From contig CAKOSO010000001.1 of assembly GCA_934102355.1 (NCBI GenBank), positions 229,620 to 293,619 of the forward strand: 64,000 nucleotides of DNA, read 5' to 3'. The notes below the pieces were generated by a model. It had not been told where the DNA came from and ran no database searches. It saw only the letters and a list, made by a program, of their open reading frames with translations. The translations under genes were made by a program, and so were the position numbers. Source of the DNA: an uncultured Bacilli bacterium. GTDB taxonomy: Bacteria; Bacillota_I; Bacilli_A; RF39; UBA660. This document shows positions 20,371-53,044 of the stretch, piece by piece; the stretch's first letter is position 1, and each line of letters starts with the position of its first letter.

Positions 20371-20601
20371 TTATAATCTTACTAAAATAACATCTTCACC
20401 AATTTTTTCAATTTTATCCCAACTTATTTCAGATTCACTATCCTTGCTATTAAATTTAAAAAGTCTTTTACCATTTTCTATAACAAAAGATTCTAATTTA
20501 CCAGACATATCAAGTTTAACATCAATAATATTACCTATCTTTCTACCATTTAAATCAATAATATCTTTATGTTGAAGCTCTGATAATCTCATTAAAACCA
20601 C
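20371..20601 (-). CDS. YlmC/YmxH-family PRC-barrel sporulation protein
   Basis: 76 aa with the [24 protein letters not shown] pattern. Sits downstream of sigG, as in other sporeformers. Confidence 0.7.
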
Positions 20602-20637
20602 CTATTTAATTTTAGTAATAAATTATACTAATTATTC

Positions 20638-21408
20638 TTAAAGTTGTTTTCTAACTCTAGTTAAAGCATTTTTTTCAAGCCTTGATATTTGTGCCTGAGA
20701 AATACCTATTTCACTTGCTATCTCCATTTGTGTTTTACCTATTATAAATCTTTGATCAATTATATATCTATCCCTTTCAGATAAATTAGAAATTGCTTTA
20801 TTTAAAGCTATTTTAAGATCTAAATCTTCACTACACTTTTTGTCTTCAATTTGATCAAATAAATATATAGTATCACCACCATCATTATATATAGGTTCAA
20901 ATAAAGAAACTGTAGGTTTTAAAGATTCCAAAGCATTAATTATATCAAACTCATCAATTTCTAATAATTCTGCTAACTCTTTCACAGTAGGTTCCTTACC
21001 ATTTTGAAGAATTAACTCATCTTTTAGTTTTAAAACCTTATAAGCAATATCCTTAACACTTCTAGAAACCCTAATAGTATTATTATCTCTTAAATATCTT
21101 TTAATTTCACCAAGAACCATAGGAACACAATATGTAGAAAATTTAACTCCATAAGATAAATCAAAATTATCTATAGCTTTTAAAAGACCAATACATCCAA
21201 CTTGAAATAAATCATCTAAATTTTCATCTTTTCTATTAAACTTTTTAAGAATAGATAAAACTAGTTTCAAATTACCATCAACAAGAAGTGTTCTAGCATT
21301 CATATCACCATTTTTAAATCTTGTAAATAACTCTGTCATCTCTTCACTAGATAAAACCTTGATATCATTTGTATTAACACCAGTAATATCAACTTTATAT
21401 TTTGCCAT
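20638..21408 (-). CDS. sigG: sporulation sigma factor SigG
   Basis: 256 aa, near-colinear with B. subtilis SigG (DLFQVGCIGLLKAIDNFD, VSLFEPIYNDGGD, GISQAQISRLEK). Confidence 0.85.
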   Translation of the reverse strand: MAKYKVDITGVNTNDIKVLSSEEMTELFTRFKNGDMNARTLLVDGNLKLVLSILKKFNRKDENLDDLFQVGCIGLLKAIDNFDLSYGVKFSTYCVPMVLGEIKRYLRDNNTIRVSRSVKDIAYKVLKLKDELILQNGKEPTVKELAELLEIDEFDIINALESLKPTVSLFEPIYNDGGDTIYLFDQIEDKKCSEDLDLKIALNKAISNLSERDRYIIDQRFIIGKTQMEIASEIGISQAQISRLEKNALTRVRKQL

Positions 21409-22935: not shown

Positions 22936-22966
22936 AATAAGAAATTACCATTTGAAATTTCTTATT
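22936..22966 (-). terminator. terminator overlapping the xfp stop codon
   Basis: Perfect 11-bp inverted repeat AATAAGAAATT/AATTTCTTATT spanning the stop at 22945, with an A-run on plus (T-run on minus). Confidence 0.55.
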
Positions 22967-25275
22967 TCTTCCATATCTATACCATTTTCTACAATATATG
23001 CTTCATGTTTTTCTAACATTTCATTGCAATATTTAATTAATTCTTCTTTTCCTTTTTTCTTATCAATATACTTTAAAGCATTTAAAATCAAATGATATCT
23101 ATCAATTTTATTTTTAACCCTCATATCAAACGGAGTTGTAATTGTTCCTTCTTCTATATAACCATGAACATGTAAATTTTTATTTGTTCTTTTATATGTT
23201 AACTGATGAATTAAATTAGGGTAACCATGAAATGCAAAAACAATTGGTTTCGTTTTAGTAAATAAAGCATCATAATCTTTATTTGACATTCCATGAGGAT
23301 GTTCAAGATCACTAACAAGTTTCATAAGATCAATAACATTAACAACCCTTACTTGTAAACTAGGCATATATTCATTAAGTATCTTTGTAGCAGCTAAAAC
23401 TTCTAAAGTTGGAGTATCTCCACAACAAGCAAGTACCAAATCAGGATTCTTTTCACTAGAAGCAAAGTTAAGAATTCCTATTCCCTTTTTACAATGTTCC
23501 TTAGCTTCTTTCATACTAAGCCATTGTAATTGTGGATGTTTTGATGCAACAATTACATTTATATAATCCTTAGTTTTTATACAATGGTCAAAAGTAGATA
23601 ATAATGTGTTAGTATCAATCGGTAAATAAATTCTAACAGTGTCAGCTTTCTTAGTAGCAACATGATTTAAAAACCCTGGATCTTGATGAGTATACCCATT
23701 ATGATCTTGTTGCCATATATGTGAAGTTAACACATAGTTTAAAGATGGAATCTCTTTTCTAAAAGGTATCTCCTTACTAACCTTTATCCATTTTGCATGT
23801 TGACTAGCCATTGAATCAATAATCCTAACAAATGCTTCATAACTATGCAAAAATCCATATCTACCTGTTAATATATATCCTTCTAATGCACCTTCACAAA
23901 CATGTTCAGATAAGAATGAATCAAAAACCCTACCATTAGGAGCTAAAAACTCATCATTTGGAAGAGTTCTCTTCTCCCACACTCTATTTGTTTTTTCGAA
24001 AACATGATTCAATCTATTAGATAAAGCTTCATCAGGTCCAAAAATTCTAAAATTCTTATTTTCATCATTTAATACAAATAAATCTCTAACATAACTACCA
24101 AGTTCCATCATATCAGAAGTACATTTCGTACCTCTTTTATTAAATTTAAATGCATAACAATCAACATTAGGAGTAATAATCTCATTACGAACTCCACCAT
24201 GACATATTTCCTTATTACTCATACATAATTCTTCTGGAGGAATAAGTTCTCTTAATTCTTCTATAAGACGCCCATTACTATCAAATAATTCTTCAGGATG
24301 ATAACTTCTTAACCAACTTTCTAATAAACTTATATTATCTTCAGTTACATTAATAGGTATTTGATGAGATCTAAAACTATCAACTATAGGTTTTCCATCA
24401 ACCTCTTTAGGACCTGTCCAACCTTTTGGAGTCTTTAAAATAAGCATTGGCCACTTTACATCACTAATATTCATATATTTAGCTTTTCTTTTATTTCTTT
24501 TGATGTTACGAACTATCTTCTTTAAAATACTCATCATTTCTTCATGCATATAATATGGATCATTACCTTCTAAATAATAAGGCTTCCATCCACATGCTGA
24601 AAAGAAATTCATAAGTTCTTCTTTACTCATTCTTCCAAATATTGTTGGATTAGAGATTTTATAACCATTAAGATGTAAAATCGGTAAAATAACACCATCA
24701 TTTTTTGGATTCAAAAACTTACCCAAATGCCATGAAGTCGCTAAAGGACCAGTTTCTGCTTCTCCGTCTCCAACAACACAACTAGCAATAAGATCTGGAT
24801 TATCTAAAACAGCCCCATAAGCATGAGAAAGACTATATCCAAGCTCCCCACCCTCATGGATAGAACCAGGAACCTCAGGAGAAACATGACTTGATACACC
24901 GCCAGGAAAACTAAATCTCTTAAAAAGTTTTTTCATTCCCTCTTTATCCATAGTAACTTCAGGATAATACTTACTATAAATACCTTCTAAATATGAATTA
25001 GCAATCATAGCTTCTCCACCATGACCAGGACCAGATAAATAAATCATATTAAGCTTATATTTTTTTATTATCCTATTTAAATGAACATAAATAAAGTTTT
25101 GTCCAGGAGCAGTACCCCAATGACCAACTAATTTCTTTTTTATATCAGTCATTTGAAGAGGTCTTTCAAGTAAAGGGTTATCAAGTAAATATAGTTGCCC
25201 TACTGACAAATAATTACAAGCTCTATAATACATATCAATTTTTTCAATTTCTAAATCTTTACTCATATCACACAC
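22945..25275 (-). CDS. xfp: xylulose-5-phosphate/fructose-6-phosphate phosphoketolase
   Basis: 776 aa. XFP N-terminal signature (GHWGTAPG), TPP-binding region, typical XFP length. Confidence 0.85.
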   Translation of the reverse strand: MCDMSKDLEIEKIDMYYRACNYLSVGQLYLLDNPLLERPLQMTDIKKKLVGHWGTAPGQNFIYVHLNRIIKKYKLNMIYLSGPGHGGEAMIANSYLEGIYSKYYPEVTMDKEGMKKLFKRFSFPGGVSSHVSPEVPGSIHEGGELGYSLSHAYGAVLDNPDLIASCVVGDGEAETGPLATSWHLGKFLNPKNDGVILPILHLNGYKISNPTIFGRMSKEELMNFFSACGWKPYYLEGNDPYYMHEEMMSILKKIVRNIKRNKRKAKYMNISDVKWPMLILKTPKGWTGPKEVDGKPIVDSFRSHQIPINVTEDNISLLESWLRSYHPEELFDSNGRLIEELRELIPPEELCMSNKEICHGGVRNEIITPNVDCYAFKFNKRGTKCTSDMMELGSYVRDLFVLNDENKNFRIFGPDEALSNRLNHVFEKTNRVWEKRTLPNDEFLAPNGRVFDSFLSEHVCEGALEGYILTGRYGFLHSYEAFVRIIDSMASQHAKWIKVSKEIPFRKEIPSLNYVLTSHIWQQDHNGYTHQDPGFLNHVATKKADTVRIYLPIDTNTLLSTFDHCIKTKDYINVIVASKHPQLQWLSMKEAKEHCKKGIGILNFASSEKNPDLVLACCGDTPTLEVLAATKILNEYMPSLQVRVVNVIDLMKLVSDLEHPHGMSNKDYDALFTKTKPIVFAFHGYPNLIHQLTYKRTNKNLHVHGYIEEGTITTPFDMRVKNKIDRYHLILNALKYIDKKKGKEELIKYCNEMLEKHEAYIVENGIDMEEIRNFKW

Positions 25276-25329
25276 ATCCTATTTTATATAAGTAGTATAT
25301 CAAAAATAAAATAAAATTAAAATACTAAC

Positions 25330-25680
25330 TTAATCTTTTGGTTTAAATATAAGAGCAAATATAAAGCTAAATACCAAAGCAGAAGTAATTCCTGCCGCAG
25401 TAAGATCAAACATCCCCATAGAAACACCCATAGCACCACTCTCTACACTTCTATGAAGTGCACCATGAGCTAGTAAATGCCCAAAACTTGTAATAGGAAC
25501 TAAAGCACCTCCACCAACCTTTTGAATAATTTTATCATAAATACTAAAAGTATCAAGCAAAGCCCCGATTACAACAAACATAGCAGTAATATGCCCAGCA
25601 GAAAGTTTAGTATTATCTATAATGATTTGAGCAATCAAACAAAGAGCACCTGCAAACAAAAATGAATATATATAAGTCAT
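25330..25680 (-). CDS. spoVAEB: stage V sporulation protein AEb
   Basis: Small polytopic SpoVAC/SpoVAEb-family protein. Start at 25680 (GGAGGTAGTGGA RBS), ATGA-coupled to spoVAD. Confidence 0.7.
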   Translation of the reverse strand: MTYIYSFLFAGALCLIAQIIIDNTKLSAGHITAMFVVIGALLDTFSIYDKIIQKVGGGALVPITSFGHLLAHGALHRSVESGAMGVSMGMFDLTAAGITSALVFSFIFALIFKPKD

Positions 25681-26672
25681 TCCACTACCTCCAAACAAAC
25701 AGCATTAGCAATTCCTAAAATATCTTGTTTTTGAAAAACCATCGTTGGATTAAATAAAGCACCAGTAGCTATTAATAAAACTTTTTTTAAATTTTTCTTT
25801 TTTAACATATCTAAAATATATCCGTAATTCACAAGTGCACTACAAACCGGACCTGATCCACCGGCCATAACCTCTTTTTGTATTTTTGTATCATATAGCA
25901 TTAAACCACAATCATTATATTTACGAGAAACTAATATATTATACTTTCTAGCCATTATATCTTTTAATATTTCTGCACCATAAATACCTAAATCACCAGA
26001 TAAAACTAAATCATAATCATCTAAAGTAGTATTAGTGTTATTTAAATGCCTAACTAATGTATCAGCACATGCAGGTGCCATAACTGCACCCATATGATTT
26101 ACATCAGTCTGATGCAAATTTATAACCCTACCAATAGTAGCAGAAGTAACTCTTATATCACTTTTCTTTCTAGAAAGCAAAATACTTGCACCACCAGTTG
26201 CAGTAAAAGTAGCAGTAGATGGTTTCAAAGCTCCATATTCTATTGGATTTCTAAACTGTTTTTCAGCAACCAAATTATGAGAAGAAGTTGTACAAATAAT
26301 ATTTTTAGCAAGTTTTGATTCTAAAAAAGAAGAACCGATAATTAAACCTTCAATACTAGTAGCACACGCCGTATATACCCCTAAAAAAGAAGCCTTATAA
26401 TCAGAAAATGCATAACAAGAAGAAGCTATCTGATTAGTTAAATCACCACCAATAAATATATCAACATTATCTTTAATAATTTTTTCTTTATCTAACAAAA
26501 TATTAATTGCATCCTTTTGCATCTTAACCTCTGATAGCTCAACAGATTTTTTGTCCATATAATAATCATTATAAACTTTATCAAAAAATTCTCTTAAAGG
26601 ACCATTTGCTTCAACCGGACCAGCTACAGTTGCAGAATTTAACACATAAACATTATCAAATTTTAAAGTCAT
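25677..26672 (-). CDS. spoVAD: stage V sporulation protein AD
   Basis: 331 aa with a thiolase-like fold (CATSIEGL... motif), between spoVAC and spoVAEb. Confidence 0.8.
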   Translation of the reverse strand: MTLKFDNVYVLNSATVAGPVEANGPLREFFDKVYNDYYMDKKSVELSEVKMQKDAINILLDKEKIIKDNVDIFIGGDLTNQIASSCYAFSDYKASFLGVYTACATSIEGLIIGSSFLESKLAKNIICTTSSHNLVAEKQFRNPIEYGALKPSTATFTATGGASILLSRKKSDIRVTSATIGRVINLHQTDVNHMGAVMAPACADTLVRHLNNTNTTLDDYDLVLSGDLGIYGAEILKDIMARKYNILVSRKYNDCGLMLYDTKIQKEVMAGGSGPVCSALVNYGYILDMLKKKNLKKVLLIATGALFNPTMVFQKQDILGIANAVCLEVVE

Positions 26673-26674
26673 AA

Positions 26675-27121
26675 TTAACCTCCCACAACCAAAGCAAATA
26701 AATACCTTATTATACTAAATACATAAGCTGAAATAACCCCATACAATATAACTGAACCAGCAAGTTTAAAAATATTACTTCCAATACCATATATTAAACC
26801 TTCTTTTTTATAATCTAGTGCAGCACTACAAACAGAATGAGCAAAACCTGTTATCGGTATAATAAATCCCATCTTTCCAAACTTAACAAAGTTATCAAAA
26901 ACACCAATTGCAGTAAGAAAACAAGCAATAAATATTAAAGTACTTATCATAAATACACTTGCATCATTACTACTTATTCTTAAAATATAAGAATAAAAAT
27001 TAATCAAAAAATTTGCTATGGCTCCAATAAGTCCACCAACAACAAAAGCAATAAAAGCATTATAAACTCTATGCTCCTTAGGTAAATGCTTTTTTACTAC
27101 CAAATCATAATTATTTTCCAT
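26675..27121 (-). CDS. spoVAC: stage V sporulation protein AC
   Basis: Polytopic SpoVAC-family protein. Start placed at the ATG at 27121 (MENNYDLVVKK), downstream of a forespore-type promoter. Confidence 0.7.
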   Translation of the reverse strand: MENNYDLVVKKHLPKEHRVYNAFIAFVVGGLIGAIANFLINFYSYILRISSNDASVFMISTLIFIACFLTAIGVFDNFVKFGKMGFIIPITGFAHSVCSAALDYKKEGLIYGIGSNIFKLAGSVILYGVISAYVFSIIRYLFALVVGG

Positions 27122-27135
27122 ACAATCACCATTTT

Positions 27136-27164
27136 TAGTATGGAAAAGCAAAAAATATTTATAC
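27136..27164 (-). promoter_or_regulatory. SigG/SigF-type forespore promoter of the spoVA operon
   Basis: Minus-strand GTATA (27160-27164), 17-nt spacer, CATACTA (27136-27142). This matches the GYATA-N17/18-CATNNTA consensus. Confidence 0.55.
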
Positions 27165-27171
27165 AACAAAA

Positions 27172-27190
27172 AAATGCACAATGTGCATTT
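27172..27190 (-). terminator. terminator of the coupling-protein gene
   Basis: Perfect 9-bp palindrome AAATGCACA-a-TGTGCATTT followed by T7 on the minus strand, between the T4CP stop (27196) and the spoVA promoter. Confidence 0.55.
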
Positions 27191-27195
27191 AATTA

Positions 27196-29322
27196 TTATT
27201 CATCAAAGAAATCATCAAAGAATTCATCTTCAGTAATCTTAATTTTCTTAGAATTATTAAAGATATTTGATACATCATCTTTTGCTTCATCAACAATTGA
27301 TTTTAATTCTGTTTTTTCAGTATTTTCAACTTCTTTAATTTCTTTTTCTTTTTCAAGTTTTTCCTTTTCTAATTTTTCTCTTTCTTCTTCCTCTTTTTCA
27401 AGTTCAGCAATCTTCTCATCAATTCTCTTAACTAGTTCATCTACATCAAAATCATTATCATTAGATCCACCAATTAATTTATCTATATCGTTTGAATTAT
27501 TATTAAATGGTAATGGATTAACAGGAGCTTGTGCAAAAGGATTTATTCCAGAACTTAATCCAGCAAAAGGATTATTATCCATTTGATTCATCATGCTATC
27601 TTGCTTTTTACTTTGAACAAAAGCCTTTAAATCAAATGTAGCAATTGGTTTTTTCTCGCGTTGAACAAATGGATCTGCTTCTGTCTTATTAATACCCCAA
27701 TCAGTTTTCCAGTTAGGATAAAGTTTTGTTTTATATGGACGACATCTAGTTTTAATAACAATTGCTTCGTTTTCTTTCATAAGTTGTAATTCTGAAACAG
27801 AAATTAAAGGCCTTGTTTCTTCATGTTCCTTATCGCCTTTACCAACTTTCACCTTTTTCTCACCACATAACTTTGAAATTTCTTCCAAAGCAGAAAGTTC
27901 AGTAGTAAGTAGATATAATAAATTATTACAGTTACTACGTATTGTTTGTGCAATCTCTTTAGAATAAGTAGCTTCAAGACCAGCAAAGTTTTGAATAATC
28001 ATTGTAAGTCTTATATGTCTTGATCTTGCAGCTGCAACCATTGTAGTAACATCTTTTAACGGAGGCATATTTTGGAACTCATCAAGTATAAAATTAGTTC
28101 TTATAGGTAATGCTCCATTTTGAGTATGTTGAGCAACATCAATCAAAGATTCATAACATTGTTTAATAAAAATAGTAGCTAGAGCATGATATGTTTTCTT
28201 TTCATCTTGTATAATCATAAATACTGCTGTTTTTTCTTTACCAATCATGTCCATATCAAAGTCACTAGTAGAAAGCATCTCAGATAAATTTTCACGAGAA
28301 GCAAAAATTCTTATCTTTTGTTTAAATGTAGAAAGTATTGAACCCTTTGTTTCTTCTGGAGCATAAACAGTACCACTAGCACATGTATAAGCAGCACTAG
28401 CAGGATTCTTTCCATTAAAGTATTCTTTTATATATGAACTTCTTGGTCCAAATCTTTCTTCACCAACTGATGCCATTACTGAAATACTATTAATATTTAC
28501 TTCCTCTTCTTTAGCATCCTCAAAAAGGCCTAAAGTAAGACCAGCGAAAAAATCAGCTGAAGTCTTTTCCCAGAAAGCATCTTTATTTCCGCCCTCTTCA
28601 TACAAGATATTAGAAGCAACGTCATCCAAAAGCTCCATTGCTTTATCAACATTACCACTTTTATATAACTTATAAGGTAAAGCTAAAGGATTCCAAGAAT
28701 TTCCTCTTTGGGGTTCACGGAAGTTTAATACAACAATCTTATAACCTCTTTCTTTTAATAATCCAGCACTTTCTTTGTATATTTCACCTTTTGGATCGGT
28801 GATAATCATTGATTCACCTTTTTTAATTAAAATCTTAACAAGTGGATGTACAACATCTTGCGTCTTACCAGCACCAGTAGATCCAATAACTAAGTTATGT
28901 GATTCACCATTATCAAGCCATATTTTTTTACCATCATTTATAAGTGGAAAACCAGCAACATTATAATATGGTTCTTTAATATCTACACAATCAAGTTTTT
29001 GTTTCATTTCTTTAGTTGTAGCAAATCTAGAATAACCACCTTTATCAGTTTCACCAAAACTTATTCCAAATCCCTTTTCTTTATCATAAAAATGAGAAGA
29101 AACACTAACAAATAAAAATATTAATACAACAAAATAAAATACAAGTACCATAGATATATATTTAGGACCAAATCCTATAAATGGATTAAGTCCAGCAAAA
29201 CTACCAGTAGTAGCAAAAGTATTAATATTAACAACTAAAATTGATACAGCAAAAAGTAAAACAACCGCAAATATTGCAAAAATAAACCAATCTTTTGGTG
29301 TAGCCTTCAACTTAAACTTCAT
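27196..29322 (-). CDS. VirD4/TraG-type type IV coupling protein (T4CP) ATPase
   Basis: 708 aa. 2 N-terminal TM helices, Walker A VIGSTGAGKTQ, Walker B FILDEF, and an RSRHIRLTMIIQNFAGLEATYSKE tail motif typical of the TraG/VirD4 family. Low-complexity E/K-rich C-terminus. Confidence 0.7.
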   Translation of the reverse strand: MKFKLKATPKDWFIFAIFAVVLLFAVSILVVNINTFATTGSFAGLNPFIGFGPKYISMVLVFYFVVLIFLFVSVSSHFYDKEKGFGISFGETDKGGYSRFATTKEMKQKLDCVDIKEPYYNVAGFPLINDGKKIWLDNGESHNLVIGSTGAGKTQDVVHPLVKILIKKGESMIITDPKGEIYKESAGLLKERGYKIVVLNFREPQRGNSWNPLALPYKLYKSGNVDKAMELLDDVASNILYEEGGNKDAFWEKTSADFFAGLTLGLFEDAKEEEVNINSISVMASVGEERFGPRSSYIKEYFNGKNPASAAYTCASGTVYAPEETKGSILSTFKQKIRIFASRENLSEMLSTSDFDMDMIGKEKTAVFMIIQDEKKTYHALATIFIKQCYESLIDVAQHTQNGALPIRTNFILDEFQNMPPLKDVTTMVAAARSRHIRLTMIIQNFAGLEATYSKEIAQTIRSNCNNLLYLLTTELSALEEISKLCGEKKVKVGKGDKEHEETRPLISVSELQLMKENEAIVIKTRCRPYKTKLYPNWKTDWGINKTEADPFVQREKKPIATFDLKAFVQSKKQDSMMNQMDNNPFAGLSSGINPFAQAPVNPLPFNNNSNDIDKLIGGSNDNDFDVDELVKRIDEKIAELEKEEEEREKLEKEKLEKEKEIKEVENTEKTELKSIVDEAKDDVSNIFNNSKKIKITEDEFFDDFFDE

Positions 29323-33245: not shown

Positions 33246-34172
33246 ATGAAAAGAAGTACACAAGAAAAAATTATAAACACTATAAATCATTATACCGATA
33301 ATTTACAAATAGCTGATGAAACATTCATAGCAAAAATATATCTAATATTATTGGATGATGATAAAAGTATAAAACCATATTTACAAAGAATAATAATAGA
33401 TTCTAAAGAACAACACATAATTACAAAAAAGGCATGTCAATATTCACCAGAATATAATACTATAGGAATAGATTTTCAAAAGCTAGATAAAAACATTTCA
33501 GAAAATATTTATGAATTTTTTAAAAGTGATATCGAAAAAGAAAATATATTACTATATAACATTGAAGTAGTAAGATTAATACTAGGAGAATATGAACAAG
33601 CAAAACTTCTAAAAGAATGCACTGAACAAGAAAGTTTTGAAAATAAACTTCTAAAATTTTCATTTGAATGTGATTTGCACAAAAGAAACCAAACAATAAA
33701 GCCAGATAACATAACACACGAAAAATATGTTGATTACATTCTATCAGAAGAAGACTTAAATTATATGACAAATGTAGAATATATAAGTCCAAAATCAAGA
33801 ATTGCATTTGCAAAATCATACTTTGAAATTAAAAAGATTCTAAAAATCTATAACAACGATAAAATAGATGACTATGAAAAATTCATTTATCATAGCGCTA
33901 TGTTAAATGATTACTATAATCAATATAAATTAGAAAACTCACCAATCAAAAACTTTATAAGAGCTAAAAAAACACTTATGAGAAATTTTGGTATTGAAAA
34001 TGATGATTTTGAAAAGTTAATAAAAGAAGAACAACAAATAGAAAAAGAATTAGATCTTAAAGAGAGATTAATATATGGAATGGATATCACACCAGAAGAA
34101 TACGACTACACTCTATATAAATGTGCAACAACAAATGCATGTAAAAAATCAAACGCAAGAATAAGAATATAA
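33246..34172 (+). CDS. hypothetical protein
   Basis: 308-aa ORF with a GGAGGA RBS. It is the only plus-strand gene in a 30-kb minus-strand stretch. Confidence 0.45.
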   Translation: MKRSTQEKIINTINHYTDNLQIADETFIAKIYLILLDDDKSIKPYLQRIIIDSKEQHIITKKACQYSPEYNTIGIDFQKLDKNISENIYEFFKSDIEKENILLYNIEVVRLILGEYEQAKLLKECTEQESFENKLLKFSFECDLHKRNQTIKPDNITHEKYVDYILSEEDLNYMTNVEYISPKSRIAFAKSYFEIKKILKIYNNDKIDDYEKFIYHSAMLNDYYNQYKLENSPIKNFIRAKKTLMRNFGIENDDFEKLIKEEQQIEKELDLKERLIYGMDITPEEYDYTLYKCATTNACKKSNARIRI

Positions 34173-34197
34173 AAAAATTCCCAAATCAATGGGAATT

Positions 34198-36045
34198 TTA
34201 TTTTACTAAATTAGATATATCTGAAGAGAAATCTTTTCGATTTTTATGCAAGTCAATAAATCCTTTAAAACCTAACTTAAGATAACCTTGTATTTCGATA
34301 TCAGATGTATCTTTTGTTAAAACATAAACCGGTATCTTAAAATTATCTAAAGCTTGTAATTTTTTAAGAGTTGTAACACCACTAAGTTTATCCATATCAT
34401 CTTTCATAAGAATAAGATCAAAATTTTCACCTTTTCTTACCTTAGCAAGACAAGACTCTCCGCTTTTTGAAACAATAAGTTCAATATCCTTTGGCTTTAA
34501 AATTTTAGTAATTGATTTAACTTCATTTAAATTATCATCCACTAAAAGAATTCTTTTACTTGCACTATATTTATTTAAAAGACCTTCTTCTGGAACAATT
34601 TTTTGATCAAGAACTATAGTAATTTTTGTACCTTCATTTAATCTACTATCAATAATTAACTTTCCACCAATTAAATCAATTATTGTTTTAGCAAGTTTTA
34701 AATGTTGATTATGTGCTTCAATTTTTTCAAACTCTTGTTCAGAAATATCACTTGCGCTTTCTAATACATCATTAACTTGATCAGCACTCATTCCACATCC
34801 AGTATCTTCAACTACAATTAAAATCCTACAAATATCACCTTTATTAATAAAGCTTGCTCTATATGAAATAGACCCTTTGTCAGTATATTTTACTGCATTA
34901 TTTAAAATAATACTAAGAGCTTGTTTTAATCTAAGACCGTCACCATAAAGATTCTGTGGAATATTATTTGAAATATCAACATTAAGTTCAACATCTTTAT
35001 TAACTAAGTTACTGCTTAATATTTTTGATGTTTGCTTAAATATTGTACTAATATTATATTTATTATATTTAACATCAAGTTTTGATGAAGCAATAGATGA
35101 TATATCTAAAGCATCATTAATTATATTCATAACTTTTCTAGATGAAAGTTTAATATCATTAGCAATTTCCTTAGCTTCATCTAAACTAGTAGCATCATCA
35201 ATATAACTACACAAATCATATATCTCACTAGTAGGTTTTTTAATATTCTGAGTTATATTAAATAAAAACATAGATTTTTCAGTATTAGAACTAGTAGAAA
35301 TTTCTCTAGATCTTTTTAATTCTTCAATTATTTTTACATCCGGATTTTCAATAGTAAAATACATTATAAATGTTACTAAAAATAATGATATAGATATAAC
35401 TAAAAATCCTGGATTTATAATTCTTACAACTAAAGCAAAAAAAACACAACCAATCAAAGAAAATAACGGAATATATTTTTTCCATTGTATATTCTTAAAA
35501 TTCAAAACAACAGACAAGATCCAAGAAATAATACATCCACCGGCAATTATTGCTATAAAATCAGTACTAATACCATAAGAATACACAACATTATTTTCGT
35601 AGTAATAATATAAAGGTAAAGTACATACAATTAAAACGCTTAAAATATAGCTAAATATAAACAACATCATAGCAATTTTAGCAACTTTTTGACTAACATT
35701 AACAAATGATATCTGATATATATAAAAAGTAAATATAAACAACCAACTTACTATATGAACCAACCATAATCTATTAATGATTACTACTGAAATTGGAAAC
35801 AATTCCTTATTTGCAGTAAAATAGCAACACAAAAGCTCTATAATAAGTCCGCAAAAACTTAAAACTATCAAAATATTATATATCTTTGTTTCAACAGTGT
35901 TAACACGTTTTTTAGAAAAGTATGAAATTAAAATTACTAATCCAAAAAGCATACAACAAATCATACTTCCAATAGCTTGATACAAAACAATCACTCCTTC
36001 TATTCTATATAAGAAAAGTATAACACAATAATAAAAAGTAAACAA
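34198..36045 (-). CDS. hybrid sensor kinase-like protein (7-TM sensor + HisKA-like + HATPase_c + receiver) with degenerate phospho-sites
   Basis: 615 aa. The HATPase N-box NNAVKYT, G1 DTGCGM and G2 GGKL are intact. The H-box reads FLFNITQNIKKPTSEI (Gln where His is expected). The receiver has LLVDDN but LILMKDD where LILMD is expected. Confidence 0.6.
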   Translation of the reverse strand: MFTFYYCVILFLYRIEGVIVLYQAIGSMICCMLFGLVILISYFSKKRVNTVETKIYNILIVLSFCGLIIELLCCYFTANKELFPISVVIINRLWLVHIVSWLFIFTFYIYQISFVNVSQKVAKIAMMLFIFSYILSVLIVCTLPLYYYYENNVVYSYGISTDFIAIIAGGCIISWILSVVLNFKNIQWKKYIPLFSLIGCVFFALVVRIINPGFLVISISLFLVTFIMYFTIENPDVKIIEELKRSREISTSSNTEKSMFLFNITQNIKKPTSEIYDLCSYIDDATSLDEAKEIANDIKLSSRKVMNIINDALDISSIASSKLDVKYNKYNISTIFKQTSKILSSNLVNKDVELNVDISNNIPQNLYGDGLRLKQALSIILNNAVKYTDKGSISYRASFINKGDICRILIVVEDTGCGMSADQVNDVLESASDISEQEFEKIEAHNQHLKLAKTIIDLIGGKLIIDSRLNEGTKITIVLDQKIVPEEGLLNKYSASKRILLVDDNLNEVKSITKILKPKDIELIVSKSGESCLAKVRKGENFDLILMKDDMDKLSGVTTLKKLQALDNFKIPVYVLTKDTSDIEIQGYLKLGFKGFIDLHKNRKDFSSDISNLVK

Positions 36046-36065: not shown

Positions 36066-37892
36066 TTATTTTCTTACTCTTACCACCGAATTACTAGAAC
36101 TAGCCTCTTCTGCTTCTTCTCCTTGAACCTTAAAAGCATCAATTTTACCAATAGAAGTAAGTGGTAATTTATCATCAAATTTAAATTTTACTGGTTGTTC
36201 ATATTCAGCAAGTTTTTCCTTACATACTTTTTTAATTTTTTCTAAAGCAGAAGCTTGATTGCTTCTATATTGTTCCTTTAACACAATATGTAAAGCTGGA
36301 AGACTTCCTTGTGCTTCACTTCTATCTGGTGTAGCAACAGCAACACAGTTTTCAACTACTTCACATGAGTTAACAGCACTTTCTATTTTAGATGGAAATA
36401 CTTTAAATCCATCTGCTCTAATTATAACTCTCTTAATTCTATCCATTATATATAAAAGACCGTTCTCGTCTATATAACCTATATCACCAGTATGAATCCA
36501 ACCTTCACTATCAATCATATCATTAGTTGCTTTTTCATTTTCATAATAGCCAAGCATAGTATTAGGTCCTTTAATTTCAACTTCACCAGTTAAACCCTTT
36601 CCATATGGAAGTTCTTCACGAGTAGTAGGATCTACTATTCTAACAATTGTATTAGCAAAAGGAATACCTACACTACCAATTGCATTAGTACCATCAACAT
36701 GAGTAGAAACATTTGAAGCAGCAGCATACTCGCTTAATCCATAACCCTTAATGACAGTTGAATCACATCCAGATTTCTTTAAGAACTCATTAACTTTAAC
36801 TTCTAATTCCTTATTCATAGCATCTCCACCAACAATTGGGGATTTTAAGAAGTATAAATCTCCTGGTTTAATCTTTTTATTACCCAGTAAATGGCCATAA
36901 TGAGATGGAACACCAGTTAAATGATTTGGTTTTTCCTTCATTAAATAATCTCCAAATTTTCTAGGATCAAAAGCAGGAACTAAAGTAACTTGCATTCCCA
37001 TAGTAAGTGGAAGATGAAGACCGTTACCAACACCATATGCAATAAATGGAGGCATAATGTTTAACCATTTATCTCCCCTTTTAAAATCAAGTCCACACAA
37101 TTCACATTGTAATGCAGAAGCATTAAGATTAAGGTTAGATAACATAACTCCCTTAGGTGTTCCAGTAGTACCGCCAGTATGAACTATTGCAACAGAAGCA
37201 TTTTCATCATATGGTGCTTTAACAGTGCCTTTACCAATTGCATTTTCTAACAAATCTTTCCATTTATGATATTTTTTAGCTTTAATTAAATTAGAAAAAT
37301 TCTTAATATTATAGGCCTTTTTCATAAATGGTGGCAATGAATCAGCTGCTGATGAAACAATTACATCTTCAACAGTAGAATTATTCTTTATATCTTTAAC
37401 CTTATCAACATATAAATCAATAATAACAAACAACTTAGAATTTGCTTCATTTGCATATTCTTCCATTTCTTTTGCGCTCTTTCTTGGATCAATCATATTA
37501 GCAGTTGCACCAAGCATACTAAGAGCATAAAACATGTAAACTGTATCAGGAGTAGTTGGCATAGATATTGTTACAATATCACCTTTTTTAACTCCCAAAT
37601 TTTGAAATATTTCTGCTGACTTATTTATATTATCAAATAATTCTTTATAAGTTATCAATCTGCCATAATAATTTAAAGCTACTCTATCTAATCTATCTTT
37701 ATTTCTCTCCCATAAATAATCATAAATTGTCATATTAGGCATCATAGCATTCTTTGCTTTTTCACTATGAAACTTCATCCAAGGTTTATCTATTGAAGCT
37801 AACCCTGTTAATTTTTTTTCATTACAATCCAAAACGATCTTTTTTCCTTCTACATTTTCAGGAAAAACATTAATATTTTCGATATTGAACAT
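36066..37892 (-). CDS. AMP-dependent synthetase/ligase (long-chain acyl-CoA synthetase-like)
   Basis: 608 aa with the AMP-binding motifs HTGGTTGTPKGV, GYGLSE, GWIHTGDIG. Confidence 0.75.
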   Translation of the reverse strand: MFNIENINVFPENVEGKKIVLDCNEKKLTGLASIDKPWMKFHSEKAKNAMMPNMTIYDYLWERNKDRLDRVALNYYGRLITYKELFDNINKSAEIFQNLGVKKGDIVTISMPTTPDTVYMFYALSMLGATANMIDPRKSAKEMEEYANEANSKLFVIIDLYVDKVKDIKNNSTVEDVIVSSAADSLPPFMKKAYNIKNFSNLIKAKKYHKWKDLLENAIGKGTVKAPYDENASVAIVHTGGTTGTPKGVMLSNLNLNASALQCELCGLDFKRGDKWLNIMPPFIAYGVGNGLHLPLTMGMQVTLVPAFDPRKFGDYLMKEKPNHLTGVPSHYGHLLGNKKIKPGDLYFLKSPIVGGDAMNKELEVKVNEFLKKSGCDSTVIKGYGLSEYAAASNVSTHVDGTNAIGSVGIPFANTIVRIVDPTTREELPYGKGLTGEVEIKGPNTMLGYYENEKATNDMIDSEGWIHTGDIGYIDENGLLYIMDRIKRVIIRADGFKVFPSKIESAVNSCEVVENCVAVATPDRSEAQGSLPALHIVLKEQYRSNQASALEKIKKVCKEKLAEYEQPVKFKFDDKLPLTSIGKIDAFKVQGEEAEEASSSNSVVRVRK

Positions 37893-49258: not shown

Positions 49259-49363
49259 TTTATGTTAAATCTAAAATTATTATACCCTAAAATTTAAAAA
49301 CTATCAATAACATAAAAGTATATAAACACTTAAAATGCCAATAATATAATATGAGGTGATATT

Positions 49364-50815
49364 TTGATAAATAGTAATATTAAAATAAATGAAAACATAA
49401 TAAAAGAAAACTATAATAACGCACCAGATATAACTTTAAGATATCTAGAAGAACAAAAAGAAAAAATAACTATAGTTTTTAATCAAAGTTTATGCAGTAC
49501 AAGTTCCATAAATGAATCTATTTTAAGAAATATAACCCTTCTTACAAATAAAAAAACCTTTTTTAAAAAAGATTTATACACTCTTCTTAAAAAAACATTA
49601 GCAGCAAATAACGTCAAAGAAGTAAATACATATAAAGAAATATATTCAAAATTAAGTAATGGTTTTACTATAATTTTATTTGATAAAAAAGATAAGGCCC
49701 TAGCTGTAGAAACAAAACAGGACTTATCAAGAGCTATATCAGAGCCTCTAACTGAACAAACAATAAGTGGACCAAAGGATGCGTTTAATGAAAACTACAT
49801 GACAAATATTGGATTAGTAAGAAAAAGAATAAAAACTGATAATTTAAAAATTAAAGAAAAAATACTCGGTAGAGAATCAAAAACAAAAGTAAGTATTATG
49901 TATATGGATAACATAATAGAAAAAAACTTATTAGATGAATTAAATAAAAAGCTAGAAAGCATAGACATCGATGGAATTATTGACAGTACTTACATAAAAG
50001 AACTAATTTTAAAAAAAGATAGCATATTTCCGCTTCTTGAAACAACCGAAAGACCTGATCACGCAACAATGAGTTTACTAGAAGGAAGAATCCTAATATT
50101 TGTTGAAAATAGTCCCTACGCTATAATAATTCCTACCTTCTTTTTTGATTTTTTTCATGCCCCAGAAGATAATTATCAAAATTATAAAAACGTCACATTT
50201 ACAAGACTTATAAGATTTTTTGCATTCTTTATTGCAACTCAGTTACCGGCCATATATGTTGCAGTAACAACATATAATCAAGAAGCTATACCAACAACTC
50301 TTATTACCAATTTTGCAGCTCAAAGAGCAGGAGTACCTTTTCCAGCCATAGTTGAAGCACTAGGAATGATCTTAATATTTGAAGTACTAAGAGAAAGTGA
50401 TATTAGAATGCCAAACTTTTCCGGTTCAGCAATATCTATATTAGGAGCAATCGTACTAGGAGATGCTGCAGTATCAGCTGGAATAGTTTCACCTATAATG
50501 TTAATAATGATAGCTACAAGTGCAATATGTTCATTAATGTATTCAAATGTAGGAATGATTAATGCCATAAGAATATGGAGAATAATATTTATGATATTTG
50601 CAACATTTTTTGGAATACCAGGAGTATTCCTAGCAGACTTTATCTTCATAATAAACCTATGCGAATTAAAATCCCTTGGTAAACCATATCTCTACCCTAT
50701 AACACCATTTAGTTTCAAATTCTTAAAAAGAAACGTTGGAAAATCAAGTATAAGAAAAGACAACGAAAGATCCCCTATTCTTACTGATAAAAATTACAAA
50801 AGGAGCAACTTATGA
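49364..50815 (+). CDS. gerA: spore germination protein GerA-family A subunit
   Basis: 483 aa. GerA N-domain plus C-terminal membrane region. TTG start with a GAGGTGA RBS. Confidence 0.75.
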   Translation: MINSNIKINENIIKENYNNAPDITLRYLEEQKEKITIVFNQSLCSTSSINESILRNITLLTNKKTFFKKDLYTLLKKTLAANNVKEVNTYKEIYSKLSNGFTIILFDKKDKALAVETKQDLSRAISEPLTEQTISGPKDAFNENYMTNIGLVRKRIKTDNLKIKEKILGRESKTKVSIMYMDNIIEKNLLDELNKKLESIDIDGIIDSTYIKELILKKDSIFPLLETTERPDHATMSLLEGRILIFVENSPYAIIIPTFFFDFFHAPEDNYQNYKNVTFTRLIRFFAFFIATQLPAIYVAVTTYNQEAIPTTLITNFAAQRAGVPFPAIVEALGMILIFEVLRESDIRMPNFSGSAISILGAIVLGDAAVSAGIVSPIMLIMIATSAICSLMYSNVGMINAIRIWRIIFMIFATFFGIPGVFLADFIFIINLCELKSLGKPYLYPITPFSFKFLKRNVGKSSIRKDNERSPILTDKNYKRSNL

Positions 50816-51954
50816 AAATAAAAAAATTACTTTTAATATTAATAATTTTGACTACTTTATTTTTTATGAGTGGTTGCAGTTATCAAGAATTAAACGATTT
50901 AGCAATTGCATCTGCAATAGGAATAGATTATGAAAACAACGAATTTATAGTAACTTCACAAATATTAAACTTCCAAAAAAATGAAGAATCATCTGAAGAA
51001 AACGTAATACTATATGAAGGAAAAGGAGAAACAATCGGAGAAGCAATAAGAAATACTTATCTACAATACCCAAATAAACTCCACATGGGTCATCTTGAAT
51101 TAATAGTATTAAACAAAAATGCTGCTAATGAAAAACTAACAGAAATAATTGATTACTTCATAAGAAGTCCAGAAGCAAGAAGTAATTGTTATTTTATGAT
51201 TTCAACAGAAGGTAGTGCAAAAGATATACTTACTCCATCAGAAGAATCAGAAGATACATTTACAGCAAATAAAATAGTAAAAATAGTAGAAGATACTAAA
51301 AAATATCAAGGAACAACAACATTAATGACATTGGACCAGGTATCAATGGCATTCCTATCAAAAGGAATATACCCAGTAATTACCTCTTTAAAATATGAAA
51401 AAGACGAAGAAAAATATAGCAATGTAATATCAACGGGTTTAGTAGTATTAAAAGAAAACAATAAAATTACAGATGAATTAACAAAAGAAGAAGCAACAGC
51501 ATATAACATCATAAATAAAAATTTCACTGATGTAATGCTTAGTTTTGAATATCAAGATAACAATTTAAACGTAATAATATTTAATCCAAGTTCAAAAATA
51601 GATGTAAGAATAAAAGAAAACAAACTAAAAGTTAGCATTAACTTAACACTAGAAGGACATATTTCAGTAATAAATAAAAAGATTAATTTACAAAAAAAAG
51701 AAAATATAAAAGATATTGAACACAAAACAGAAGAAGAAGTAAAAAAATATATTGACCACTTAATAAATTTTAATAAAGAAAATAATATTGATACACTAAA
51801 TATTAAAAATAAAATATATAAAAATTATTATAAAAAATACAAAGAATATGAAAATAAAAATATATATGAAATTGCAGAAATAAACACAAATATTACTGTT
51901 AATCTATATAGATATGGTAATACTTATAAAAGTATAGGTGATAAAAATGAATAA
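50812..51954 (+). CDS. gerC: spore germination protein Ger(x)C lipoprotein
   Basis: Lipobox MSGC. GerAC-family size, and position between the A and B subunits. Confidence 0.7.
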   Translation: MKIKKLLLILIILTTLFFMSGCSYQELNDLAIASAIGIDYENNEFIVTSQILNFQKNEESSEENVILYEGKGETIGEAIRNTYLQYPNKLHMGHLELIVLNKNAANEKLTEIIDYFIRSPEARSNCYFMISTEGSAKDILTPSEESEDTFTANKIVKIVEDTKKYQGTTTLMTLDQVSMAFLSKGIYPVITSLKYEKDEEKYSNVISTGLVVLKENNKITDELTKEEATAYNIINKNFTDVMLSFEYQDNNLNVIIFNPSSKIDVRIKENKLKVSINLTLEGHISVINKKINLQKKENIKDIEHKTEEEVKKYIDHLINFNKENNIDTLNIKNKIYKNYYKKYKEYENKNIYEIAEINTNITVNLYRYGNTYKSIGDKNE

Positions 51955-53041
51955 AATAGATACCAAAGAAATTCTTGCTATTACATTCTTTACATGTACA
52001 GCACTATATCCAGGATTTGGAATAAATTCAGTGCTAAACACCGGAAATACAACATCATTAATTACACTTATAGTGGCTTTTATAATTGGAATAATTCCGA
52101 TGTTTGCAATTACTTATTTAAATAAAAAAATGAAAGATAAAAATATATTTGAATACAACAAAGAAAAATTTAAAATGTTCGGAACAATTATTAACATAAT
52201 ATTGGTTCTAATAGGAATATACATACTATTTATAAACTCATGGACATTTTGTAATTTTGTAATAAGTCAATTTTTAACAAGAAATTCATACTATGTGTTA
52301 GCAACAACATACTTTCTCATTGTTTCATATTTAGTCACTAAAAATATAAATGTAATTTGTAAAACATCAACTGTATTATTAGTTTTCTTCTTTTTAATAA
52401 TAATTCCCGTATTCGGAATATTATTTACAAAAATCGATATAACAAATATAAAACCACTTTTTACTATATCTTCATCATCCTTTATAGGAACTGTTGTAAA
52501 AGTTTTAGCATTCACATCAACTCCAATTATTACGCTATTAGCTATTAAACCATCAGATTTAGATGATCAAAAAAAATTCAAAAAATTCATCATAATCGGT
52601 TATGTTTTAGCAGGAATAATACTTTTTATATATACATTTCTAATCATAACAACATATGGAATTGAATTTTCAAAAATTCTTGACTACCCAGGATACTATT
52701 TATATAAACAAGTAAAAGCATTAAATTTCATAGATAGAATTGAAAACTTTATCGTAATAGTATTTTTTGATTCCACATTTATAAACTTAACAATGACAAC
52801 ATTCTTTATAAATGAATTTATAAATACAGTATTTAAGATAAAAAAAGAGAATAAAAAAATAATTATAACTTACACATTTCCACTTGTTATATCATTGATA
52901 AGCATTTATGTTTTCAAACATTTTTACACATACAAAATACTTGCCATATTTCCAATAATTGCAACAATTGCCATAATAATAATTATCATATTAGCACTAC
53001 TTTCCAAAATAAAAAGAGATAGCAAAAATACTACCTCTTAA
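51938..53041 (+). CDS. gerB: spore germination protein Ger(x)B (APC-type permease)
   Basis: 367 aa, ~10 TM helices. Third gene of the gerA-C-B operon. Confidence 0.7.
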   Translation: MIKMNKIDTKEILAITFFTCTALYPGFGINSVLNTGNTTSLITLIVAFIIGIIPMFAITYLNKKMKDKNIFEYNKEKFKMFGTIINIILVLIGIYILFINSWTFCNFVISQFLTRNSYYVLATTYFLIVSYLVTKNINVICKTSTVLLVFFFLIIIPVFGILFTKIDITNIKPLFTISSSSFIGTVVKVLAFTSTPIITLLAIKPSDLDDQKKFKKFIIIGYVLAGIILFIYTFLIITTYGIEFSKILDYPGYYLYKQVKALNFIDRIENFIVIVFFDSTFINLTMTTFFINEFINTVFKIKKENKKIIITYTFPLVISLISIYVFKHFYTYKILAIFPIIATIAIIIIIILALLSKIKRDSKNTTS

Positions 53042-53044
53042 AAA

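Follow-up and report, generated by a model that had tools for sequence, protein, structure and literature searches.

The locus lies in a window of 64,000 nucleotides (the whole stretch of DNA that was analysed) from an uncultured Bacilli bacterium, and centres on a minus-strand gene for a pseudo hybrid histidine kinase (pseudo-HK) of 595 aa (34198..35985, stop included), whose product is 100% identical to the database protein P0001. The original prediction gave this open reading frame as 34198..36045(-); the gene does exist, but its 5' end had been set at 36045, 60 nt beyond where it belongs, and translation almost certainly begins at the TTG at 35985, 8 nt past a Shine-Dalgarno AGGAG that can be read directly from the sequence (35994..35998, minus strand). 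Directly 3' of the gene, a bidirectional terminator-like hairpin (34174..34199), shared with a convergent 308-aa orphan gene, marks the end of the transcription unit. Upstream, co-directional and 80 nt from the pseudo-HK start, is an ANL-superfamily gene (AMP-binding, acyl-CoA-synthetase-like; 36066..37892, minus strand) with intact catalytic motifs A3, A5, A7, A8 and A10; no terminator-like site was found between the two genes, which are probably co-transcribed. Screening of the 64-kb window with HMMs derived from the family, covering its TM, DHp, CA and REC parts, returned no other HK, REC or Hpt gene.

Residues 1-214 (35344..35985, minus strand) form an N-terminal membrane sensor domain without a Pfam match, which AF2 models with seven TM helices plus a single short beta-hairpin on the extracellular side (pLDDT 80-94). 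Its relatives, 893 at E<=1e-3 among 1.84e9 representatives, are always N-terminal in proteins of ~600 aa. The motif FTIENPD (35338..35358, minus strand), invariant in alignments A1 and A2, sits where the final TM helix meets helix 1 of the DHp, and the gene fits the FTIENPD family in that its 7-TM domain ends in this motif and runs directly into the DHp. All four domains are folded in the AF2 model (mean pLDDT 81), with the HK fold kept as a DHp hairpin and a CA alpha/beta sandwich (Foldseek E 1e-13 to HK853, GacS, WalK, DivL and RetS); the matches obtained with the whole model were HK cores only.

The pseudo-HK belongs to a large uncharacterised family from uncultured gut Bacilli MAGs, defined by the 7-TM sensor ending in FTIENPD. 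This pattern occurs in at least 590 copies in GTDB genomes, and among the matches listed the relatives from the GTDB scan share no more than 37% identity and all derive from 'uncultured Bacilli/Tenericutes' gut MAGs. Among 284 full-length members, 103 are fully canonical, with each catalytic residue 100% invariant, and 181 are degenerate in that they lack the G2 box; 159 of these 181 have also lost the His, and G2 is retained by no His-less member. About two thirds of the sequence diversity of the family is kinase-dead. The genomic context of 93 family genes (52 canonical, 41 degenerate) follows the same division, as an Hpt is fused or adjacent at 39/52 canonical loci against 0/41 degenerate ones and a receiver gene is nearby at 25/52 against 0/41, and across the family, loss of the His is strictly correlated with loss of the ATP lid and of the Hpt and receiver partner genes. 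In a crude NJ tree the canonical members form one tight clade, and an H/F sister clade is also present. A dedicated phosphatase function was considered for the degenerate members and rejected, with the H+1 Glu / H+4 Thr(Asn) motif not conserved among them and a partner RR missing.

The catalytic columns of the pseudo-HK were set by phmmer against solved structures, BLASTP against a canonical paralogue and family alignments (MAFFT). The DHp-like helical hairpin (residues 215-301; 35083..35343, minus strand; AF2 helices 215-263 and 268-301) aligns with the DHp of GacS, RetS and HK853. Its degenerate H-box FLFNITQNIKKP (35233..35268, minus strand) pairs residue for residue with FLANMSHEIRTP of GacS, as well as with RetS and HK853, in phmmer, and without gaps with FLSSMSHEIRTP of the canonical paralogue P0059 in BLASTP; because of this residue-for-residue pairing, Gln246 (CAG, 35248..35250) is assigned to the phospho-His column, which bears out the His-to-Gln replacement that had been predicted and is also seen in the family alignments. 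No His is present in residues 236-330 of the DHp, H+1 is Asn instead of Glu and H+4 is Lys instead of Thr, while the Pfam HisKA match stays below threshold (E 0.16) and covers only the C-terminal half of that model. The protein thus lacks the phospho-His of a functional HisKA-type histidine kinase.

The CA (HATPase_c) domain (residues 308-463; 34597..35064, minus strand; Pfam PF02518 E 7.6e-14) is modelled as an alpha/beta sandwich and had been described as an intact ATP-binding domain with the N, G1 and G2 boxes preserved. This description holds for the N box LSIILNNAVKYT (LNNAVKYT, with Asn363; 34882..34917, minus strand) and for the G1 box DTGCG (D394, G396 and G398; 34792..34806, minus strand; invariant in A1 and A2), but fails for G2, where EAHNQHL (34699..34719, minus strand) stands in place of the canonical EGTGLGL with every glycine gone. 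In the phmmer and BLASTP alignments EAHNQHL pairs with GGTGLGL of GacS and EGTGLGL of P0059, and the F box 5' of the G2 site has likewise disappeared, its Phe residues being replaced. Of the elements expected in a functional HisKA-type kinase, the N and G1 boxes are therefore present and the ATP lid formed by the F box and the G2 box (GxGxGL) is not; the lid segment has low AF2 confidence. The 'GGKL' that was apparently taken for G2 pairs with a later 'MGGE/MGGK' motif.

GacS is the best solved relative of the pseudo-HK. It has been demonstrated that replacing two of its G2 glycines by Ala (G472A/G474A) abolishes ATP binding (PMC8498467), and by analogy ATP binding and autophosphorylation would be expected to be lost here too; some binding of an adenine nucleotide through the invariant N-box Asn and G1 DxGxG might nevertheless occur. 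These observations bear on the suggestion that the protein is an ATP-binding-competent pseudo-kinase whose scaffold or switch function depends on ATP. Between 90 and 95% of the degenerate members retain the N-box Asn and G1 DxGxG, which show no variation in A1 (29 family members of 595-613 aa without a G2 box), the G1 Asp is found in 172/181 degenerate members of the 284-sequence set, and in a 206-sequence set the D and first G of G1 are present in 206/206 and the second G in 205/206; moreover, CA is the most constrained domain of the pseudo-HK (dN/dS 0.08). These features speak for a bound nucleotide, but the loss of the G2 and F boxes in 181/181 degenerate members, the GacS precedent and the poorly defined lid in the AF2 model make an ATP-dependent scaffold improbable, and the suggestion loses its footing as originally worded, since it rested on an intact ATP-binding domain.

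The C-terminal pseudo-receiver (residues 476-595; 34201..34560, minus strand) retains the receiver fold (PF00072 E 2e-11; (beta/alpha)5 in AF2) and aligns with RR468, SLN1 and P0059. The segment DLILMKDDMDKLSG pairs with DLIVLDIMMPVMDG of RR468, NMIFMDVQMPKVDG of SLN1 and DIILLDDMMPKMSG of P0059, and because these alignments are free of indels Lys528 (AAA, 34402..34404, minus strand) is placed on the phospho-Asp column, again as predicted. In addition, GFIDLH pairs with GFLSKP, which replaces the conserved beta5 Lys by Leu579 (34249..34251, minus strand). In terms of the receiver quintet (DD, D, T/S, K), the DD pair (34534..34539, minus strand) and Thr557 (34315..34317, minus strand) are kept, and the D and K of a phosphorylatable receiver have become K528 and L579. 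With gapless alignments through both sites, Q and K occupy the two catalytic columns and no neighbouring His or Asp falls on them. Lys at the D position is uncommon, being found in 10/181 degenerate family members.

It was also proposed that the protein signals through a non-canonical residue, in which case another kinase would phosphorylate, for instance, Asp529, the neighbour of Lys528, or else a Ser, Thr or Tyr. Every member of the Q/K clade has an acidic residue at D+1 (K-[DE]-[DE]), and a CheY D57N variant is known to be phosphorylated at the alternative site Ser56. However, the DHp offers no His donor, the beta5 Lys is lost too, Hpt or HK partner genes are missing nearby (none in the window, and Hpt or receiver genes near none of the 41 degenerate loci), and acidic residues at D+1/D+2 are a general trait of the FTIENPD family and of pseudo-receivers (PMC12632262), all of which leaves this proposal without support and very improbable.

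The comparison with orthologues showed that both replacements are conserved, as Q and K are present in 7/7 database sequences of at least 90% identity and in orthologues at 86, 45, 40 and 39% identity. The overall dN/dS of the pseudo-HK gene is 0.12 (TM 0.105, DHp 0.105, CA 0.082, REC 0.227); the ANL gene next to it is equally low (0.137), and SpoU is higher (0.258). Purifying selection acts on every domain and the gene is not decaying: its catalytic residues have been lost while the gene is kept by selection, with dN/dS below 0.23 in all domains. The view that this is a pseudo-kinase fused to a pseudo-receiver is therefore well supported, with Q and K on the His and Asp columns, their conservation in orthologues and the low dN/dS. 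That the gene might instead be a decaying pseudogene, or that the Q and K reflect a sequencing error or a misalignment, finds a point in its favour in the Q codon CAG, one base away from His (CAT/CAC), but is already contradicted by the unbroken frame of 595 codons with RBS and terminator, the dN/dS of 0.12, the identical Q and K in independent assemblies and distant orthologues and the gapless alignments, and its likelihood is close to nil. HisKA domains without the His account for ~0.9% and PF00072 domains without the Asp for ~2% (PMC12632262).

With regard to the enzyme partner, the co-directional AMP-binding gene found here directly upstream of the pseudo-HK is a recurrent feature of the family: an ANL gene occupies the -1 position on the same strand at 61/93 family genes, including 30/41 degenerate ones. 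The ANL partners differ strongly from one another (mean identity 28-34%). In a mirror-tree comparison, ANL and kinase distances were only weakly related (Mantel test: Pearson r 0.21 with p 0.001, Spearman 0.03 and not significant), too little to show tight ANL-HK co-evolution as a physical complex. The orthologue P0005 has no ANL neighbour, and ANL adjacency is equally typical of canonical members, so it may merely reflect production or removal of the signal by the enzyme, rather than a role of the enzyme as the output. No relevant literature was found on ANL/hybrid-HK pairing in uncultured gut Bacilli.

Taken together, the sequence shows the pseudo-HK to be a hybrid histidine kinase paralogue, embedded in the membrane, whose catalytic machinery is dead. 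It keeps the 7-TM sensor, DHp hairpin and CA-like and receiver-like domains of its family and has lost every phosphotransfer element: the phospho-His, the F and G2 lid boxes, the receiver Asp, the beta5 Lys and the downstream Hpt and receiver genes. With all of these gone, the sequence indicates that it could neither autophosphorylate nor relay phosphate, and it would act through conformation and protein contacts. The partnership that selection seems to have kept is that with the upstream ANL enzyme, and for this reason the most likely role would be that of a phosphorylation-independent membrane sensor or scaffold acting with the ANL enzyme. For example, the enzyme could be tethered or gated at the membrane when the TM domain detects a cue of lipid or carboxylate type, and contacts between DHp domains might possibly let the protein modulate canonical paralogues too. 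An adenine nucleotide may still bind to the N and G1 boxes that remain, as an allosteric ligand and not as a phosphodonor. We give this reading, a dead hybrid-HK paralogue that serves as a phosphorylation-independent sensor or scaffold with the ANL enzyme and possibly also modulates canonical paralogues, a probability of about 0.5. A pure scaffold role would leave the near-invariant N-box Asn and G1 DxGxG of the dead kinases unexplained.

Modulation of the canonical paralogues could also be the whole function of the protein. As a modulator of the RetS/DivL type, it would form DHp heteromers with canonical FTIENPD kinases of the same cell and thereby block or tune their trans-autophosphorylation or phosphorelay, and, having the TM sensor in common with them, it could compete for their signal or integrate it. 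Some genomes carry several family copies (L010/L070, L007/L073, L011/L075 and tandem pairs), and the pseudo-HK has its whole architecture in common with canonical paralogues, as illustrated by P0059, which has the same domain order and 34% identity over ~570 residues. The DHp is strongly constrained (omega 0.105), precedents exist in the RetS-GacS DHp heterodimers and in DivL (PMC8498467, PMC9491836), and RetS, GacS and DivL are among the best structural and sequence relatives (Foldseek, phmmer). On the other hand, the 64-kb window holds no canonical paralogue, the loci examined included no tandem pair of a canonical with a degenerate member, and the attachment of the ANL gene to dead copies would be left unexplained, so that we regard this alternative as rather unlikely, although worth bearing in mind.

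A bolder version of the sensor/scaffold reading, to which we attach a low likelihood, is that the ANL enzyme and the 7-TM pseudo-kinase form a phosphorylation-independent signalling module of their own, common across uncultured gut Bacilli, in which the dead HK core has been put to a new use: the CA domain would sense the enzyme's adenylate or nucleotide, or the pseudo-HK would regulate the enzyme at the membrane. The CA domain would then have kept its adenine- and Mg2+-binding half (N and G1) and dropped the lid that handles the gamma-phosphate, and its ligand could be AMP, acyl-AMP or ADP. If this were true, the family would span a natural series with a complete phosphorelay at one end and a sensor free of phosphate at the other.

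Among known systems, canonical HPK1b hybrid kinases of the TorS/BarA/GacS/LuxQ/ArcB type have the same order of TM sensor, DHp, CA and REC, and the best NCBIfam matches of the pseudo-HK are TorS, LuxQ, BarA and ArcB, all far below cut-offs; in contrast to these kinases, it lacks the phospho-His, F and G2 boxes, phospho-Asp, beta5 Lys and an Hpt domain or gene, together with the phosphatase motif (H+1 Glu, H+4 Thr). The combination of a pseudo-HK with a pseudo-receiver is already known; the FTIENPD family itself is undescribed. In Caulobacter DivL, and in RetS acting kinase-independently on GacS, the HK fold is likewise kept with the kinase chemistry dispensable or absent (PMC9491836, PMC8498467, PMC12632262), and function runs via protein contacts of the DHp/CA core. 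Both proteins are among the top Foldseek matches of the pseudo-HK, and the G2 region of RetS is also degenerate (LGSHLGL in the alignment). However, in DivL a Tyr takes the place of the His and the sensors are PAS domains, RetS has kept its His and possesses a periplasmic sensor and two receivers, neither has a sensor homologous to that of the pseudo-HK or is paired with an ANL enzyme, and here the His, lid and receiver site have been lost together, across a whole radiation of paralogues. The pseudo-receivers of CikA and ShkA similarly combine a PF00072-type fold without the phospho-Asp with an HK core, and pseudo-receivers carry negatively charged residues after the D position, as does the FTIENPD family (PMC12632262); their kinase core, however, is active and regulated by the PsR, whereas that of the pseudo-HK is dead too.

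A functional analogy, and no more than that, can be drawn with the Rpf/DSF system of Xanthomonas, in which the membrane-embedded hybrid kinase RpfC (TM-HisKA-CA-REC-Hpt) is genetically linked to the fatty acyl-CoA ligase RpfB, which turns over the fatty-acid signal (bioRxiv 10.1101/2022.01.03.474871, PMC9040794). Canonical FTIENPD members share this order of domains and likewise have an ANL gene next to them, but the sensors are unrelated in sequence, the phylum is another one and the pseudo-HK lacks all phosphotransfer residues. Neither an RpfF-type DSF synthase nor an RpfG HD-GYP regulator was found in the window or in recurrent neighbour clusters, and no RpfC model is among the best 25 of 63 NCBIfam matches.

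Pseudo-HKs and pseudo-receivers are recognised but rare (~1% of HisKA and ~2% of receiver domains), with mechanisms known from a handful of proteobacterial and cyanobacterial cases only. The FTIENPD family stands apart by its scale, and in having the sensor, the N and G1 boxes and the enzyme partner held under strong selection. Its graded series, from canonical members through those without His and lid but with an intact receiver to fully dead ones such as the pseudo-HK, offers a way of asking what the HK scaffold does without phosphotransfer, and the family hints that these abundant uncultured gut Bacilli have a sensory module, so far unstudied, that is linked to carboxylates or lipids. Finally, orthologues of the pseudo-HK adjoin sigG-ylmC, spoVA and xfp, and in the window the gene lies ~13 kb from sigG; a link to sporulation was considered and set aside, because the whole block is syntenic and the proximity to sigG and spoVA is read as shared ancestry.

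The gene is listed in the window as a 615-codon open reading frame on the minus strand (34198..36045), but since an AGGAG stands 8 nt before a TTG at codon 21 and the identical database protein P0001 (100% identity) has 595 residues, it was taken as 34198..35985(-) with a TTG start, and residues of its product, here called pseudo-HK, are numbered accordingly. Directly 3' of its stop codon lies a bidirectional terminator-like hairpin (34174..34199), shared with a convergent plus-strand gene (33246..34172) encoding a 308-aa orphan without any Pfam or NCBIfam match; this orphan evolves fast (56% identity, dN/dS 0.31, relative to a strain whose neighbouring genes stand at 81-95% identity). No terminator-like site was found in the 80 nt between pseudo-HK and the upstream co-directional gene (36066..37892(-)).

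A Pfam profile check confirmed the receiver (Response_reg, E 2e-11) and the ATPase domain (HATPase_c, E 7.6e-14), whereas only the C-terminal half of HisKA was matched, below threshold (E 0.16). In phmmer comparison with solved structures, FLFNITQNIKKP of pseudo-HK pairs with FLANMSHEIRTP of GacS and in the same way with RetS and HK853, while in BLASTP it pairs gaplessly with FLSSMSHEIRTP of P0059, a canonical paralogue keeping all catalytic residues; these alignments place Gln246 (CAG, 35248..35250) in the phospho-His column, and no His occurs anywhere in the DHp segment. Likewise, DLILMKDDMDKLSG of the receiver matches, without indels, DLIVLDIMMPVMDG of RR468, NMIFMDVQMPKVDG of SLN1 and DIILLDDMMPKMSG of P0059, and thus Lys528 (AAA, 34402..34404) occupies the phospho-Asp column, so that both substitutions in the original prediction are borne out. 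It has been reported that His is missing in ~0.9% of HisKA domains and Asp in ~2.0% of PF00072 domains (PMC12632262). The receiver retains the acidic pair D483 and D484 and Thr557, and its beta5 Lys has become Leu579 (GFIDLH vs GFLSKP). Read from sequence, canonical His-Asp chemistry is closed to this protein; signalling by an alternative residue is very unlikely.

The CA domain possesses, as predicted, an N box (LNNAVKYT) and a G1 box (DTGCG), but the G2 box, also said to be preserved, is lost: EAHNQHL stands where GacS has GGTGLGL and P0059 has EGTGLGL, and the 'GGKL' evidently miscounted as G2 pairs with the MGGE/MGGK motif beyond it. The F-box phenylalanines are likewise substituted in the alignments to GacS and P0059, so the claim of an intact ATP-binding domain fails, and the ATP-dependent scaffold proposed on its basis is weakened but keeps a low probability, since N and G1 hardly vary and no part of the protein is under tighter constraint than the CA domain. 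GacS no longer bound ATP once two G2 glycines had been replaced by alanine (PMC8498467).

That these losses reflect gene decay or error is scarcely credible. Both Gln and Lys are found in 7/7 database sequences of at least 90% identity from independent assemblies, and orthologue comparison showed them to be kept in P0002, P0003, P0005 and P0019 (86, 45, 40 and 39% identity, respectively). Relative to the 86% orthologue (locus L088), dN/dS (Nei-Gojobori) is 0.12 over the full gene and 0.105, 0.105, 0.082 and 0.227 for the TM, DHp, CA and REC domains, compared with 0.137, 0.258 and 0.060 for the flanking ANL, SpoU methylase and trmD genes, demonstrating that purifying selection maintains all four domains. 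In the AlphaFold2 model (75-sequence alignment, mean pLDDT 81) the membrane part has seven TM helices and a single short hairpin outside the cell, the DHp consists of two long helices (215-263 and 268-301), the CA domain is a sandwich with an ill-defined lid (412-425), and the receiver has a (beta/alpha)5 fold. Foldseek matched the model to histidine kinase cores, among them those of DivL and RetS, both atypical kinases.

Pseudo-HK belongs to a family of hybrid histidine kinases whose N-terminal 7-TM sensor ends in FTIENPD. The 120 best homologues share this membrane domain, its invariant FTIENPD end and a directly continuous DHp, with H 57, Q 33, N 28 and E 2 in the His column and D 95, F 15, K 5 and others in the Asp column. 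A motif scan of GTDB species representatives confirmed at least 590 copies, the best-scoring 80 loci of which all (80/80) derive from animal or human gut metagenome assemblies, nearly all labelled uncultured Bacilli, Tenericutes, Mollicutes or Firmicutes, and a few bearing other labels. The TM domain alone retrieved 893 cluster representatives among 1.84 billion (E <= 1e-3), N-terminal without exception in proteins of ~600 aa.

A census of 284 non-redundant full-length members comprised 103 canonical and 181 degenerate proteins. In the former the His, H+1 Glu, H+4 Thr, Pro, N-box Asn, G1 Asp, EGTGLGL G2 box and receiver quintet (DD, D, T, K) are all invariant. In degenerate members the G2 box is never present (0/181), the His column holds Q 99, N 38, H 22, E 7, A 4, K 4, T 2 and otherwise single residues, and H+4 Thr/Asn is mostly lost, while 90% keep the N-box Asn and 95% the G1 Asp; the receiver Asp is kept in 124, the whole quintet in 58, and Lys replaces the Asp in 10 (canonical, 0). 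No His-less member with a G2 box was found among the 284. In the NJ tree canonical members form a single tight clade with short branches and degenerate ones are diverse and long-branched; the sister of the query's Q/K clade has His, Phe at the Asp column and no G2. These counts and the tree mark pseudo-HK as the extreme of a gradient, every phosphotransfer element being lost. The sister clade (P0004, P0006-P0018, P0065) bears a good-looking H-box, LSHEVREP. Nine of the 10 Lys-at-Asp members, which represent only ~5 independent lineages, also lack the beta5 Lys (now L, I or N), a possible shift of charge from one position of the former active site to another. Tandem degenerate genes occur at four loci (L070, L035, L038, L013), often with unlike Asp columns (D/N, N/K, D/E), and already-dead copies appear to be still duplicating.

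Canonical members have a complete relay: 39/52 of their loci include an Hpt, either as part of the kinase itself (proteins of ~750 aa) or immediately downstream of it, where an Hpt-REC gene or an Hpt and a single-domain REC follow; at 0/41 degenerate loci was an Hpt or receiver gene found within three genes, and the 64-kb window holds no further HK, receiver or Hpt gene. Pseudo-HK lacks both ATP-lid elements and nearby relay partners. Examples at canonical loci are an Hpt-REC fusion of ~261 aa (L014:11814-12596) and a separate Hpt (~118 aa, L068:7509-7862) and receiver (~127 aa, L068:7875-8255); these genes, which have no output domain, form a complete four-step relay with the kinase.

The commonest neighbour in 88 fetched loci is an ANL-superfamily (AMP-binding) gene, on the same strand and directly upstream, as in the window (36066..37892(-)). 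It precedes 61/93 family genes (31/52 canonical, 30/41 degenerate), several of the other 32 lying at contig ends, and is also present at the 86% orthologue and 2/3 distant Q/K orthologues. The partners, whose closest relatives are 4-coumarate-CoA and fatty-acid-CoA ligases, retain core motifs A3, A5, A7, A8 and A10, and in at least 26 of them the N-terminal part carries the motif ...SIDKPWLKYY... They diverge strongly among themselves (~28-34% identity), the kinases far less so, which could mean separate substrates for each module. Their distances track kinase distances only weakly. Loci combining an ANL gene with a canonical or dead kinase include L002, L007, L043, L082 and L086.

Pseudo-HK is very probably a pseudo-enzyme, and would act through conformation and protein contacts. 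Preservation of the sensor domain and ANL gene around dead copies favours a pseudo-enzyme that acts independently of phosphorylation, as a membrane sensor or scaffold linked to the ANL enzyme, a statement to which, as a whole, we assign a probability of about 0.5. The main rival, modulation of canonical paralogues through DHp heteromers as in RetS or DivL, is more doubtful, and both may hold. Pseudo-histidine kinases (DivL, the kinase-independent action of RetS, an evolved ChrS pseudokinase) and pseudo-receivers (CikA, ShkA and many more) are established (PMC12632262, PMC9491836, PMC8498467), and the concept is not new. In contrast to described cases, pseudo-HK has jointly lost the His, ATP lid and receiver site, is one of a large group of dead paralogues that radiated from a full HK-REC-Hpt-REC relay, carries an undescribed 7-TM sensor, belongs to a family consistently paired with an ANL enzyme and comes from Bacilli of the gut that are uncultured. 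A membrane hybrid kinase and an acyl-CoA ligase are also partnered in the DSF system, as RpfC and RpfB (bioRxiv 10.1101/2022.01.03.474871, PMC9040794); the resemblance is one of analogy only, because RpfF, RpfG and sensor homology are absent here.

The remaining window genes are housekeeping or sporulation genes. The latter include a SigG-like sporulation sigma factor gene followed by ylmC/ymxH (20374..21408(-); score 367 against a cut-off of 372) and, near it, the xfp phosphoketolase gene with spoVAC-spoVAD-spoVAEb (22945..27181(-)), on which basis the host (26% GC) is probably a spore former. This block also flanks the Q/K orthologues (sigG-ylmC, spoVAC/D/Eb, xfp); since sigG lies ~13 kb off in the window and the entire block is syntenic, the neighbourhood is read as shared ancestry and does not speak for a sporulation role of pseudo-HK. 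In one orthologous locus an insertion between the pseudo-kinase and sigG (L082:11895-14276) encodes a PARCEL-repeat surface protein of 793 aa. A TraG/VirD4-like type IV coupling protein (708 aa, 27196..29322(-)), between the spoVA genes and a 153-aa orphan downstream of trmD, may be the leftover of an integrated conjugative element; TrbL-, TraC- and TraG-like genes lie near the same block in L086. In the stretches examined between ~16.7 and 49.3 kb, the long ORFs listed are mostly on the minus strand and GC skew is strongly negative, and a plus-strand gene block follows (49364..53041), where near-zero skew (about 49300..53100) suggests a local inversion or insertion.
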